Assembly: GCA_964291625.2 (NCBI GenBank)
Contig: OZ220089.1
Location: 736,001-800,000, forward strand
Direction: 5' to 3'
DNA from: Candidatus Latescibacterota bacterium
GTDB lineage: Bacteria; Latescibacterota; UBA2968; UBA8231
DNA: 64,000 nucleotides
The position numbers and the translations under genes were made by a program. The notes under the pieces were generated by a model. That model was given only the letters and a program-made list of their open reading frames with translations. It made no database searches and had not been told where the DNA came from. Below are positions 341 through 8,057 of this stretch, in pieces (the first letter of the stretch is position 1; the number at the start of each line of letters is the position of its first letter).

Positions 341-3292
341 ATGACTGAGCTCAGCATCACCGAGGCCGGCGCCGTCCAGTTCCCCATGGTGCGGCACGCC
401 GCCGAGGTCGGCTGGATCGCCATCTCCCCGCAGCAGGCCATGCGCAAGCGGGGCAGCGCCGCCGGGATGCTGTTCCGCGACGATCTCGAAGCAAAGCTGG
501 CGCAGCTCAATCCGTGGATGAGCGAGGTCGCCATCCGCCAGGTCGTCGAACGGCTCGAAGCGATCCCTCCCTCCATCGAAGGCAACCGCGAAGTGCTCGC
601 TTGGCTGCGCGGCGAGCGGCAGGTGTACGACGAAGCCGACGAGCGCAACCGGCGGGTCCGGCTTGTGGACTTCGAGCACCCCGCCGCCAACAGCCTGCAC
701 GTCACCTGGGAGTGGAGGGTCAAGCCGCCGGCCCGCAAGGGAAACCGGGCGGACGTCATGTTCGTCGTCAACGGGGTTCCCGTCGCCATTGTCGAGCACA
801 AGAACCCGAAGGACGCCAACGCCATCGAGCGAGGCGTCTCTCAACTCAGGCGATACGAAGAGGAGACGCCCGAGCTGATCGCCGCGCCTCAGCTCTTCAA
901 CGTGACCCATCTGCTGGAGTACTGGTACGGCGTGACCTGGAACGCTACCCGGCGCTTCATGGCACGGTGGAAGGAGGAGCCCGAGGAGAGCTACAGGTTC
1001 GCCGTTCAGACCTTCTTCGAGCCAACGGACTTCCTGCGCACCCTCGAACGCTGGATCCTCTTCTACGTCGAGGACGGCGAGACCCGGAAATCCGTGTTGC
1101 GCCAGCACCAGCGCCTCGCCATCGGCAAGGTCGTCGAGCGCTGCCAGGACCGGGCGAAGAGGCGCGGGTTGATCTGGCACACCCAGGGGTCGGGCAAGAC
1201 CTTCACCCTGCTGACCGCCGCGCGCCTGATCCTGGAAGACAAGCAGGGCTTCGAAAACGCCACCGTCCTCCTCGTTGTCGACCGGATTGAGTTGGAGGGT
1301 CAACTCAAGGGCTGGGTGGAGAGGCTCCTGGGCGAGATGCAGCAGCAGGAGATCCCGGTCTGGCCGGCGCGGTCCAAAGAGGAGGTGCAGGAGCTGCTTC
1401 GGACCGACAAGCGCGGTCTGATCCTCTCCATGATCCACAAGTTCGAGGGGATCGACCGCGATGCGAACACCCGCGGCAACATCTACGTCTTCATCGACGA
1501 GGCGCACCGCTCGGTGGCCAGGGATCTCGGCACCTACATGATGGCGGCCGTGCCGAATGCGACCATCATCGGCTTCACCGGCACCCCGGTGGCCCGGACC
1601 ACCCAGGGCGAAGGGACCTTCAAGATCTTCGGCGTCGACGACGAGCGGGGCTATCTCGACAAATACTCGATTCGGGAATCGATCGAGGACGAAACCACCC
1701 TGCCTCTCCGCCATACCATGGCGCCGAGCGGGATGACGGTGCCGGTCGAGCGGCTCGACAGGGAGTTCTTCGAGCTGGCCGAGGCCGAAGATGTGACCGA
1801 TGTGGACGAATTGAACAGAGTCCTCGACCGGGCCGTGGGCCTGCGCACTTTCCTCACGGCCGATGAACGGATCGAGAACGTGGCGGCCTTCGTGGCGGAC
1901 CACTTCAAGCAGAACGTCCTGCCTCTCGGCTACAAGGCCTTCCTCGTCGGTGTGAACCGCGAGGCCTGCGCGAAGTACAAGCGCGCTCTCGATAGGCTGC
2001 TGCCGGCAGAGTGGTCGGAAGCCGTGTACACCGAGAACGCCGCCGATGTCGTGGACCGGCCCCTCGTCGCCGAGTTACAGCTCTCGCCGCAGCGCGAGGC
2101 GGACGTGCGCCTCAGCTTCAAGAAGGACGGCGAAGATCCGAAGATCCTGATCGTCACCGACAAGCTTCTGACCGGCTACGACGCGCCGCTGCTCTACTGC
2201 ATGTACCTGGACAAGCCGATGCGGGATCACGTTCTGCTGCAGGCAATCGCGCGCGTGAACCGCCCCTTCGTCGACGCCGAGGGCGGCCGCAAGCGCATCG
2301 GCCTCGTCGTCGATTTCGTGGGCGTGCTGCGCGAGCTGCAGAAGGCTTTGCGGTTCGACTCCTCCGACGTCAGCGGCGTGATCGAGGATCTCGATCTGCT
2401 GCTCAAGGACTGCCTGGATAAGATCGAGCGGGCGAGGGCGGAGTTCCTTGGCACCGAGGGCAGCGCCGGCGAGGACGAGCGTCTGGAGAGGCTGGTCTAC
2501 GGCCGCTTCCTCAGGCCGGAGTCGCGCAAGGCCTTCTTCGAAGCCTACAAGGAGATCGAGGCGCTCTGGGAGATCCTGTCGCCTACGCCGGAGCTGCGCG
2601 GCCATGTGGCCACCTTCAAGCGGCTGGTAGAGCTCTACACCGTGCTCCGTAACGCCTACGAGGGTCCAGTCAGGTACGAGGCCGCCCTCGGCCGCAAGAC
2701 CCACGAATTGGTGCAGGATAGTGTCATCCAAGGCAGCCTTGGGGATCTGGTCAGGACAGTGACCTTCGACGCGGAGACCATCGAAGCGCTGCGAGGCAAG
2801 CCGGGCTCCGACGAGGCCAAGATCTTCAACCTCGTGCGGGGCCTGCGGGCCGAGATCGACAGCGACCCGGACTCGGCGGCTTTGCTCCGACCCCTGAGGG
2901 AGCGCGCCGAGCGCATCCTGGAGGACCTCGGGAACCGCAACAGTACCAGCCTCGCGGCCCTGAACCAGTTGTCGACGCTCGCGGAGGAGAAGGAAGAGGC
3001 GGCCAGAGCGGCGAGAGAGAGCGGCCTGTCTCCCCGAGCCTTCGGCGTCTACTGGACTCTCAAGGACGATAGGGCGCTCAAGGCCGCGGGTACCTCTGCA
3101 GCCGAGCTGGCGCAGGAGGCGGAAACGCTGCTCGCCCGGTTTCCGAATGCAGCTCTGAACCCCGACGAGCAGCGGCGGTTGCGGGCTTCTCTCTACCGGC
3201 CTCTACTCGGCGTCGAGCGGGATGAACGGGGACGGGTCGTGGATGCCATCATCCGAATCCTGCTTGGTACGGACGCCGATGCGGAGTCATGA
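341..3292 (+). CDS. hsdR: Type I restriction endonuclease subunit R
   Basis: 983 aa; nuclease motif [21 protein letters not shown]; Walker [40 protein letters not shown]. Confidence 0.95.
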
Positions 3293-6600: not shown

Positions 6601-8057
6601 ATGATGTGCGCCTATGCCTTATAGGCACTCGTCTGGCCCTGCGAGATATCGCAGTTGACCTATGCACTATCGCAAGGGGCTTGGATCCTTCTGCTCGGAT
6701 CGGGATTGAGGACATTGAGTCCGCTTCGCAATCCCCCTTTTGGCTAGACGATCTTTGGATAGACTGCTTTAGCGAGCGACGGTTGCCGTTGCACACGCCC
6801 GAGGCAGCACAGGCGCTTGTGGAGCGGGTTGAGCGCCACCTTGATTCTACGATCACCGAATTCAACGAACGTACGGCAACCGCCGCCAAATTGGCCATCT
6901 TTGCTCTCGCCAACAATCTCCCTCTACTCGCTCAGAAGGAGCTTAGGCGAGGGGTAGGATGCGTACTCAGTTACGGTTGGCACAAGGACTTGCTCGCTCT
7001 TGAGGTGGTCAAATCGCTAGATTTGCTGGCAGAGTGCGGTGATGCCAGGGTTTCCCAGACCTTGCTTAGCCTAGCAGGCGAATTCGAGGCCATAGGAGAG
7101 TACACAGACGGGGATGAAACGGACTTCGCTCGCGAGGCCTATCTCAAGGCAATCGGGAGGCACTTCCCAGAGCGAATTCCGACCTGCTTCGCACACCTGA
7201 TTCACGCCGAAGATTGGCGATATGCGGAAGTGCTGTCCACTTCGATGCTGGGGGCCTGCGAGGCGGGAGATCCATTTGCACAAGCCTTATTCGAGACCTA
7301 CATAGGCCCTTCGGAGATACAGGCTCTCCAAGCCGCTTCACGAGTCGAGCCTCATTCCGCAGCGGCTGTATCTGCTGTTCTCAAGAAGACAGGGAGGACT
7401 AGCGTCCGAAAAGGTGCTAGGCCCGTTGAGGGCCCAAACTTTGGCGATGGCGCCGAGTCCTCCGAACCGGATGTGGAAGTACCTGATCCAGGCAAGTTCC
7501 CTCCCGGTCTCCTCCACGCGTACCTGGACGCCATTCGTGAGGTTCGGCCCTACGACCATGGGCGAAGCCTCGTTACCGAGTGGCTAGAGTATTGGGAGAC
7601 CAACGGGCAGGCTGAGAGAGCTCTGGCCGATCTCGAGGCGACAACCTCCCCAACCGAGGCTCGTCTCGATCTCGATGACGCTTTCGACGTAGCTTTCGAA
7701 ATCGCACTCAGGATCCAAGGGCGCTCCAGGGCTTACAAGTGGCTCATTTGCGCCCACACCACTCGTTCGGGCTGGCTGCGGTGGTGGACCTCGGATGAAG
7801 AGGCACACGCTAGATTCAAGGTCTTTTCTGCACACTATCGGGAGAAGTGGCAGGACTTTGTTACGGCTACCGCGAGGCCGGTGTACTCAACCAGAATCGA
7901 GGGAAACGGCATCACTGTAGGTCAGTCTCGCCTAATTTGCTTTCTGGTGCAAGTCGGCCAATTTGATGTTGCCCACGCTTGTTCCTTGGAGATGGCTGAA
8001 GCCTTTCGGCAGGCGGTAGCCGAACAGCCGATTGAGGCACCTGAGTGGTCAAAGTGA
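3672..8057 (+). CDS. Nuclease-STAND/NACHT ATPase (Avs/AVAST-like anti-phage protein); 1461 aa from ATG 3672, or 1592 aa as an M48 fusion from 3279
   Basis: N-terminal Cap4/DUF4297-type PD-(D/E)xK pattern GFQYQD...IEDVV...TQVKF; Walker A GPPGRGKST; Walker B LIMIVDGLDH; GLPL; winged-helix PFHGSL; long helical C-terminus; visibly lower GC than the flanks. Confidence 0.8.
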   Translation: MTGHDYKTPGLLRAGFQYQDLVAIEILIEFYRQRDLYAWVQLEAEEREFRSIEDVVACRPNGLYELTQVKFTADPDSSSNTLSWEWLTASGGARRRSLLQKWAQTTLHHKEACTLASAALKTDRIPDAGFAQCLKGTKVDYSLLPTQLRAKVEDQIGSAQAAQSFFQDFHFFHSQPILDDLEDRLRSQIASDTNRAGFALFREQVQRWSTRKDQPAPNGRIKYIHLRQALSVERSRPIPQDFLLPPTYSVPDADFDRAFLAEITGSSGLTVLWGPPGRGKSTYLSHCVASLNQETFVCIRHHYFLSLEDRSQGRFHYHAISQSLRHQLDQALPDLERSAADPGDLGKYLEVAASLLKEKDRRLIMIVDGLDHVWREHRDHEDMETLFEALLPLPENVRLVVGTQKISSAHLPTSLLNALPPEEWTELPLMSQVAVHRWIRSQDKAGRLNLRLTAGQKRPNMVRTIARAFYDISQGLPLHLIYSFEALARTGAVVTPEDVAALPACPSGDIRNYYRSFWTRADAKARTILHVLAGLEFGPPAFAISDCFGRCNQSLTSLAEISHLLDYTETEVRPFHGSLFSFVRDLPEHEVAFAAHAADVLAWLEVSAPEYWRWAWLWITKAQLGDSSDLLAGPNREWAISSLVAGFPIEQLVTILDHAEKAAFDAFNLPRLLALRLLKTRAVNGPEFQTDQWPLLQEVALSLSSDPYALPNLQSRLHRASAELLPFLVRTTDSSNRSEVAQSAIEELNGRIDRLLADETSSGERQAALVDALVAVAGTVRRPEAPRFVKSPRSGEISDALLGTYARTSVLTLNFENVLEASTHRSGHNLDREVLAVLCLEGLDPSMKPDLKALTHPALRCLTILKGGRAKRSRTRRNLSDLFPTRKGSVPGYSEDVHAVAYNVFFAALASGLSGRSARGWSKMPSEAEATWFGDAVRSLERLAEAIAQRWTESGRWPALCEVYGLLDLQEPPTKDHDVRLCLIGTRLALRDIAVDLCTIARGLDPSARIGIEDIESASQSPFWLDDLWIDCFSERRLPLHTPEAAQALVERVERHLDSTITEFNERTATAAKLAIFALANNLPLLAQKELRRGVGCVLSYGWHKDLLALEVVKSLDLLAECGDARVSQTLLSLAGEFEAIGEYTDGDETDFAREAYLKAIGRHFPERIPTCFAHLIHAEDWRYAEVLSTSMLGACEAGDPFAQALFETYIGPSEIQALQAASRVEPHSAAAVSAVLKKTGRTSVRKGARPVEGPNFGDGAESSEPDVEVPDPGKFPPGLLHAYLDAIREVRPYDHGRSLVTEWLEYWETNGQAERALADLEATTSPTEARLDLDDAFDVAFEIALRIQGRSRAYKWLICAHTTRSGWLRWWTSDEEAHARFKVFSAHYREKWQDFVTATARPVYSTRIEGNGITVGQSRLICFLVQVGQFDVAHACSLEMAEAFRQAVAEQPIEAPEWSK

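Follow-up and report, generated by a model that had tools for sequence, protein, structure and literature searches.

We analysed a 64,000-nucleotide stretch of contig OZ220089.1 from a Candidatus Latescibacterota bacterium (the window; coordinates are window positions unless stated otherwise), in which a short YgjP-like metallopeptidase gene, ygjP, lies directly behind the Type I restriction gene hsdR and is open into a gene encoding a nuclease joined to a signal transduction ATPase with numerous domains (STAND). The initial annotation of this DNA had read the arrangement as a fusion and offered two explanations for it, namely a nascent dual-effector (protease plus nuclease) Avs protein created by cassette capture, or the accidental loss of a stop codon. 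The following features, with lengths in nucleotides (nt) or amino acids (aa), make up the locus:

341..3292, plus strand: hsdR, Type I restriction subunit (Pfam SWI2_SNF2, HSDR_N, ResIII and T1R_D3; PADLOC REase_I, E 3.5e-84)

3279..3592, plus strand: ygjP, short YgjP-like (minigluzincin-size) metallopeptidase gene (PF01863), its body intact and its own tail and stop gone

3578-3582 and 3584-3588, plus strand: two runs of five C (C5 runs) at the end of the ygjP homology, from the sequence and a frame comparison with the related fused protein P0002

3593..3671, plus strand: spacer of 79 nt, open in frame 0, joining ygjP to the STAND gene

3672..8057, plus strand: gene 1 of the cassette (1461 aa), with a putative Cap4/LmuA-like PD-(D/E)xK nuclease at about 3699-4151, a NACHT-type STAND nucleoside triphosphatase (NTPase) at about 4464-4982 and a helical sensor at 5349-8054

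8045..9463, plus strand: orf472, gene 2 of the cassette (472 aa, GTG start at 8045), overlapping the end of gene 1 by 13 nt in another frame

The list of open reading frames (ORFs) contains a single stop-free frame on the plus strand from 3222 to 8057. The in-frame ATG at 3222 lies inside hsdR, and the conserved ygjP start is the ATG at 3279, which overlaps the end of hsdR by 14 nt; from this codon to 8057 the fused product has 1592 aa. Between 3300 and 3700 there is no stop in frame 0, with stops in frame +1 at 3631 and 3673 and in frame +2 at 3647. The initial annotation had therefore described the junction correctly: the YgjP-like gene after hsdR has no stop and continues in one frame (3279..8057) into the nuclease-NACHT ORF, by way of a linker of about 35 aa that is rich in Pro and Arg (aa ~96-131), and the downstream ORF has its own ATG at 3672 with no Shine-Dalgarno (SD)-like motif upstream. 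Such a motif is likewise missing before hsdR, ygjP and the downstream gene orf374, and genome-wide it precedes 25.8% of 3682 long ORFs, compared with 17.5% of internal control sites. Since SD motifs are rare in this genome, their absence before 3672 is uninformative and provides no argument for obligate read-through. A promoter and terminator scan of positions 1-11600 returned no promoter-like and three terminator-like sites, fewer than in shuffled sequences and none of them between hsdR and gene 1, and RNA folding at ATG 3672, ATG 3279 and GTG 8045 gave uninformative z-scores (-1.3 to +1.0). By BLAST, the 79-nt spacer occurred nowhere else in the genome or among the fetched loci. As a rough estimate, a stretch of 31 codons at the local G+C content (GC) is free of stops about 40% of the time and frames agree one time in three, so that an open, in-frame junction at this position is not improbable.

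The fused product's N-terminal part matches the YgjP-like family PF01863 over aa 6-95 (82.7 bits, cut-off 26), the match covering only profile positions 111-200 of 207, that is, the C-terminal half. The zinc motif HExxH is present as HELLH (aa 67-71, 3477-3491) and is conserved in all relatives compared. Proabylysin (4JIU, 105 aa) was the only PDB sequence match of this part, and a weak one (E 0.088, aa 20-100 against 19-95). The best 150 of 9818 representative matches to the 131-aa N-terminal part are 66-244 aa long, mostly 100-130 aa, and cover query residues ~3-100. In the loci of 12 of 13 relatives ygjP stops 3-31 codons past a W-x-x-Y/H motif, and the thirteenth gene runs off its locus. 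Judged from these sequences, the window's YgjP domain is not a fragment, but a short form that is normally a stand-alone gene of about 100-130 aa. The placement after hsdR, which the initial annotation had called common, was seen in relatives too, where the start also overlaps hsdR. The sole unusual feature of the window's ygjP is its missing stop, frame 0 holding none of its own up to 8055.

Fusions of the short YgjP domain are not confined to this locus. Nineteen proteins of 231-2000 aa carry it joined to hsdR pieces, AlbA_2/HATPase_c_4, an rve integrase, DUF1801 or DUF3800, and in one case, P0002, to NACHT; this variety of partners fits a pattern of sporadic read-through into the adjoining gene. 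In the same-genus genome G007 (L004/L011; G007:C1 ~5289876-5290339), a deletion of ~126 nt has taken out the final part of hsdR together with the initial ~36 codons of ygjP and created an in-frame HsdR-YgjP fusion. P0285 and P0291-P0293, from among the long proteins, are fusions of a similar kind between HsdR pieces and YgjP. Where matches to stand-alone YgjP proteins extended into the linker (P0127, P0185 and others), the tails of these proteins proved to be basic and unrelated to the spacer.

Gene 1 encodes NACHT (PF05729) at aa 401-568 of the fused product (32.9 bits, cut-off 26.7) together with NPHP3_N (34.9 bits, cut-off 24.8), preceded by a Cap4_nuclease match (PF14130, aa 145-243) that lies under its cut-off (18.7 against 26.2 bits). 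Among the PADLOC models it matched effector-domain models only, namely the endonuclease effector PDLC00741 (E 7.4e-11, aa 141-291), SAVED_PDDEXK (E 2.4e-8) and LmuA (E 5.9e-8), so that the PADLOC check suggested in the initial annotation recovered effector domains but no named Avs3 system. Nuclease residues D20, D54, Q68 and K70 (gene 1 numbering), which comprise acidic positions and a (D/E/Q)xK motif and are probably catalytic, are invariant in a 29-sequence alignment, as are Walker A (GPPGRGKST, G277-T282) and Walker B (DGLDH, D368/D371); the window's gene 1 has its full length, and none of the invariant residues of this alignment is lost in it.

Gene 1 has a conserved GHD(Y/F)K motif, and in 12 of 12 distinct other loci an in-frame stop precedes this motif by no more than 50 codons; three of the loci (L013, L014 and L015) have an ATG at the exact position of window 3672, which indicates that this ATG is the ancestral and normal start of the gene 1 family. 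Among the best 120 homologs listed, PF01863 is missing from 119 (946-1583 aa), whose query coverage does not exceed 93%, and only P0002 (1599 aa, 85% identical) carries it; P0003 (1458 aa, 86% identical) is called from the internal M. Some STAND copies are broken or aberrant, through decay or assembly error, with an in-frame stop after 317 codons in L017 and a split gene in L020 and L048 (in L020 at ~926 aa).

The initial annotation had overlooked that the STAND gene belongs to a unit of two genes, of which it makes up one half. In a search of genome contigs, orf472 stood directly after gene 1 in 11 of 11 loci, at 25-59% identity, and an overlap of the same kind joins the two genes in relatives. 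Programmed frameshifting at this overlap was considered and dropped, no slippery heptamer being seen by eye. No Pfam, NCBIfam or PADLOC family was found for orf472, and the ESM Atlas gave unnamed clusters only. The AlphaFold (AF2) model of orf472 (mean predicted local distance difference test, pLDDT, 77.8) had significant Foldseek matches only to Avs3 in PDB entry 8DGC (E 1.1e-6 for 8dgc_B, and 4.2e-6), and VIA-align placed its residues 1..472 on residues 1546..2070 of 8dgc_A (401 aligned, root-mean-square deviation (rmsd) 6.2, Z 9.8; next entry Z 6.2). For the model of the gene 1 sensor (5349-8054, pLDDT 76.7), 8DGC was also the top Foldseek match (E 3e-5, compared with 7e-3 for the next), and 591 residues aligned with Avs3 556..1540 at an rmsd of 5.4. 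The Avs3 ranges covered by the gene 1 sensor and by orf472 are colinear and abut one another.

Independently of the structural models, the orf472 profile finds two long NACHT-bearing proteins, of 1939 aa (P0295, E 3.7e-77) and 1954 aa (P0296, E 6.1e-35). Residues 8-1457 of P0295 align with gene 1 from end to end (33% identity) and residues 1464-1914 with orf472. Since P0295 spans both genes, gene 1 and orf472 are two halves of a chain that is single elsewhere, and the models suggest that together they form a conserved, split Avs3-like unit of two genes whose domains are ordered as in Avs3. At the sequence level there was no PADLOC or NCBIfam Avs3 match, the only Avs-type match being Avs1b with 30.3 bits (cut-off 1500), and single-sequence searches of gene 1 and orf472 against PDB gave no relevant match. 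Avs3 is a single polypeptide, whereas the unit consists of two genes in 11 of 11 loci, and no protein exceeds 1606 aa among the 120 homologs listed. The public titles of the cassette loci include Latescibacterota, Bryobacterales, Caldilineaceae and several Alphaproteobacteria.

The cassette coincides with an island of low GC. The value is 0.66-0.67 up to 3600 (0.670 at 3301-3600), falls to 0.577 at 3601-3900, as the initial annotation had noticed near the junction, remains at 0.54-0.61 to about 9300 and reaches 0.68 at 9451-9750. G007 provides an empty site: it matches the window to about 3592 and then diverges, its ygjP ending in GRRPHPRTVNSRKKPQSP followed by a stop, and thyA comes after a further 0.9 kb or so. 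The protein cluster of a sister lineage contains P0274, a stand-alone YgjP of 119 aa with a tail like that of G007. The empty site and the stand-alone P0274 indicate that the low-GC island starts just past the C5 runs at 3578-3588. The proposal that a cassette had been captured next to a Type I restriction-modification (RM) locus is thus supported by the GC island (~3600-9450), the end of G007 homology at ~3592 and the stand-alone tail of P0274. A search for repeats flanking the island returned only short, chance-like matches.

Comparison of close relatives revealed that the reading frame across the spacer is variable. The spacer of P0002, PPTIAGSVRSRHQERLNP, matches frame +2 of the window at 15 of 18 positions, and not frame 0, so that for 18 codons the reading frame used on this DNA is not the same in the two lineages; judging from the protein data, the P0002 lineage would differ from the window by about 5 nt at the C-runs and by 1 nt near 3639. 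Three separately assembled fused copies make up the P0002 cluster, namely P0002 itself, P0275, which has an aberrant 21-aa insert in the NTPase, and P0273, which is fused at its N-terminus and split by a frameshift from P0272. A Logan contig from run X2, which belongs to another study (809 bp, depth 2, 95% identical, 38 differences), covers 3072-3880 without gaps, and one from run X3 (1192 bp, about 90% identical, 122 differences) covers 3074-4266 with a sole gap, 1 nt missing at 3639. Applied to the window sequence, this loss would end ygjP at TGA 3673-3675, overlapping ATG 3672, and would leave the two genes unfused. The frame relation therefore toggles among close relatives, and the spacer is free of constraint at the protein level: its openness is shared, its sequence is not.

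Recurrence of the fusion, raised in the initial annotation as a check, was seen in the P0002 cluster and in the gap-free X2 contig, but not in the other homologs listed or in the 75 other genomes of the family (equal to the whole order in the same 76-genome set), where no match spanned the junction. Scans of genome contigs and metagenome contigs did not find the loci encoding P0002 and P0003. In run X1 (0.82 of sampled words) no listed contig covers 3594-3647, one of them ending at 3505; a second X1 contig has 7 differences over 3672-4600 and continues to the left of 3672 with 121 nt unlike the window. The X1 contigs neither support nor contradict the junction.

We consider it probable, at roughly 60%, that the fused ORF is an accidental, frame-labile read-through of ygjP onto a laterally acquired, split Avs3-like cassette, and not a selected dual-effector architecture. 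Of the two explanations first offered, the accidental loss of a stop codon is thus the one we judge best supported, whereas a nascent dual-effector Avs is disfavoured by the different spacer frame in the sister lineage, the 1-nt deletion in X3, the ancestral ATG 3672 and the presence of YgjP in just 1 of the 120 homologs listed. A laterally acquired two-gene defence cassette would have inserted itself near the 3′ terminus of the short ygjP behind hsdR and replaced its last ~18 codons and its stop, and the leftover 79-nt spacer would by chance be stop-free and in frame, allowing the ygjP ORF to read into gene 1. The working unit would be gene 1 translated from its ancestral ATG 3672, possibly in part as an N-terminally extended form, together with orf472, the two products presumably binding each other. 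By analogy, the mechanism is expected to resemble that of Avs3/Avs7-type receptors, in which case the helical region and orf472 may bind a phage protein as the trigger, the NTPase would drive nucleotide-dependent oligomerisation, and the N-terminal Cap4-like nucleases would assemble and cut DNA, leading to the death of the infected cell. In SeAvs3 and SeAvs7, Cap4 domains are reported to mediate tetramerisation at the N-terminal end of the protein (PMC13581612), and a 131-aa N-terminal extension is accordingly judged to be at best neutral unless it is removed.

Several observations weigh against this interpretation, some against the Avs3 likeness of the cassette and others against an accidental junction. 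The likeness to Avs3 is structural only, since profiles of both genes searched against PDB sequences gave nothing relevant at E<=1, and the Z of 7.8 for the gene 1 sensor on Avs3 falls, for its helical part, within the background for repeat proteins. At the junction, there are two distinct fused haplotypes, the window type (with the X2 contig, depth 2) and the P0002 type (three contigs), and the P0002 type arrives at the same open frame through two compensating indels, a possible sign that the fusion is selected. Between the window and P0002 lineages, the YgjP domain is about 92% identical, with HExxH kept in both, and the internal start of P0003 is the choice of a gene caller and no proof of an upstream stop.

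The alternative that survives best is that the fusion is functional, the minigluzincin being a real N-terminal module whose role could be that of a second (protease) effector, of a regulator or of a cis-protease that cleaves the spacer and so frees the nuclease-STAND part, with selection keeping the frame open. The open frame has been kept in two lineages along different indel paths and also in the 95%-identical X2 contig, and the YgjP domain is intact, HELLH included. Precedents exist in the N-terminal peptidase effectors of bacterial NACHT proteins (10.1101/2022.07.19.500537) and in the protease-plus-nuclease Avs2 system (10.64898/2026.08.25.746987). Furthermore, the C-terminal tail of proabylysin blocks its own active site (PMC5557861), so that replacement of the tail could alter the regulation of the protease. 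We nonetheless regard a functional fusion as unlikely, given that the protein sequence of the spacer is not conserved, that a close relative (the X3 contig) carries an unfusing 1-nt deletion, that two of the three P0002-type copies have a damaged STAND part (the P0275 insert and the P0273/P0272 frameshift split), that no YgjP-NACHT protein apart from P0002 was found among the 120 homologs listed, the 19 long YgjP proteins or the 75 other family genomes, and that the short YgjP joins many unrelated neighbours.

A more specific form of this idea, to which we give little credence, is that selection holds the in-frame junction, two lineages having reached or restored it by different indels, and that the minigluzincin is a new N-terminal module of a split Avs3-like receptor. 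Within it, the minigluzincin could be a self-processing pro-domain, the spacer lying in the protease cleft as the proabylysin tail does, or a second proteolytic effector. If true, it would tie the expression and activation of an abortive-infection nuclease to a Type I restriction operon.

The continuous frame might instead stem from an erroneous indel, introduced into the C-rich spacer by the assembly or its consensus, the real ygjP ending before or at ATG 3672. The frame does hinge on how long the two C5 runs are and on a single base, at 3639, where the related X3 contig differs by exactly 1 nt, and the exact 1592-aa public protein derives from the same contig and is therefore not independent support. 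However, the X2 contig from another study spans 3072-3880 gap-free, the layout of the C-runs in the window equals that of the G007 ygjP, in the same frame, and the fused frame is found in three other assemblies of the sister lineage, which makes such an error rather improbable. Least credible of all, and very unlikely in our view, is a decaying locus in which the fused ORF is a pseudogene-like relic and ygjP and the cassette are both inactive, because, although G007 has its hsdR fused in frame to a truncated ygjP by the ~126-nt deletion and cassette copies are broken elsewhere (the L017 in-frame stop, the L020 split, the P0273/P0272 split), the window's gene 1 is full length with all invariant nuclease, Walker A and Walker B residues, and its orf472, hsdR, hsdM and hsdS are intact.

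The junction lies at a Type I RM locus with intact hsdM, hsdS and hsdR. The operon begins upstream of the window (in L034) and reads, all on the plus strand, hsdM (HTH-fused), hsdS, an AriA/OLD/GajA-like ATPase gene, an AbiU/AIPR gene and, as its last canonical member, hsdR; its Type I identity is given by PADLOC MTase_I (E 1e-152) and Specificity_I (E 2.1e-24) alongside the REase_I match of hsdR, and by Pfam matches too. The two defence genes between hsdS and hsdR (L034:12389-16103, G000:C1), the second ending at window position 103, encode a 653-aa AAA_15/AAA_21 ATPase (PADLOC AriA E 2e-22, Old E 1e-20; GajA-like) and a 556-aa AIPR protein (PADLOC AbiU E 3.5e-44). About 4 kb upstream of hsdM, L034:108-5405 (G000:C1:720108-725405) encodes a protein of 1765 aa in which Big_1 domains occur alongside numerous WD40 beta-propeller repeats.

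The cassette occupies a different position in related operons. In 3 of the 11 loci (L012, L015 and L020), as well as in two longer stretches (L047 and L048), it is placed between the hsdS and hsdR genes of a closely related Type I RM system whose HsdM and HsdR are 77-82% and 73-79% identical to those of the window; an AbiU sharing 80% identity with that of the window comes next in L012/L047, and the loci with the cassette inside a related RM operon include one titled Caldilineaceae. The association of the cassette with this RM family is therefore recurrent, in another slot, and the position behind ygjP and the fusion are peculiar to the window lineage. This RM operon seems to be a common vehicle for defence cargo, passing from one phylum to another.

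One further gene separates the island from thyA:

9491..10615, plus strand: orf374 (374 aa), hydrophobic (membrane-like), at native GC, with no Pfam or NCBIfam match

This gene is outside the system and marks a variable right flank. G007 retains just a 73-nt piece of it (window 9533-9605) beside thyA, and in its ygjP-thyA interval, a variable spot, it has a different ORF of ~0.9 kb with a lipoprotein-like N-terminus. Just beyond thyA, the window carries a 1707-aa ORF on the minus strand (11465-16588) in very GC-rich DNA (0.70-0.75).

The fusion illustrates how insertions in defence islands can yield chance ORF fusions that resemble new multi-effector proteins, and the comparisons made here, of an empty site, sister haplotypes, the family start codon and the reading frames, are tests that can be used for other chance fusions. 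The more useful result is the cassette itself, a split Avs3-like nuclease-STAND system that none of the PADLOC and NCBIfam models searched names. Set beside the single-chain proteins P0295 and P0296, the two-gene cassette offers a natural split/fused pair for studying the C-terminal sensor domain of Avs3-type proteins, and the locus adds an example of a Type I RM operon that carries other defence cargo.

Among known systems, the minigluzincins (PF01863; proabylysin 4JIU) resemble the N-terminal domain in size, in the HExxH motif and, as in relatives, in the position directly after hsdR; the window gene differs in having lost its own variable basic tail and stop, and its match to proabylysin is weak (E 0.088). 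The Avs2-trypsin-MBL system shows, as a precedent, that one Avs can have a protease as well as a nuclease under its control, and its trypsin is a conserved, structurally integrated module (10.64898/2026.08.25.746987), whereas the metallopeptidase of the window is joined by a non-conserved spacer of variable frame. The bacterial NACHT (bNACHT) proteins, a group of NLR-related defence proteins, share with the cassette a NACHT domain above cut-off, a putative nuclease effector at the N-terminus, a repeat sensor at the C-terminus and the setting of a defence island, their effectors including N-terminal nucleases and peptidases (10.1101/2022.07.19.500537); they differ from it in that the cassette has a conserved second gene in 11 of 11 loci.

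The closest comparison is with SeAvs3 (AVAST type 3), whose PDB entry 8DGC is titled 'Avs3 bound to phage PhiV-1 terminase'. The cassette differs from it in having no detectable sequence similarity and an NTPase that Pfam reads as NACHT/NPHP3_N, and in being split into two overlapping genes, and a terminase trigger for the cassette would be only an analogy. AVAST type 3 was first described with two genes. In SeAvs3 and the cassette alike, an N-terminal Cap4-like nuclease, a STAND NTPase, a long helical sensor and a C-terminal mixed alpha/beta domain appear in the same order; 8DGC is the top Foldseek match for both cassette models (probability 1.0), with colinear, abutting ranges; and the 1461 and 472 aa of the two cassette proteins together come near the Avs3 chain of about 2000 aa.

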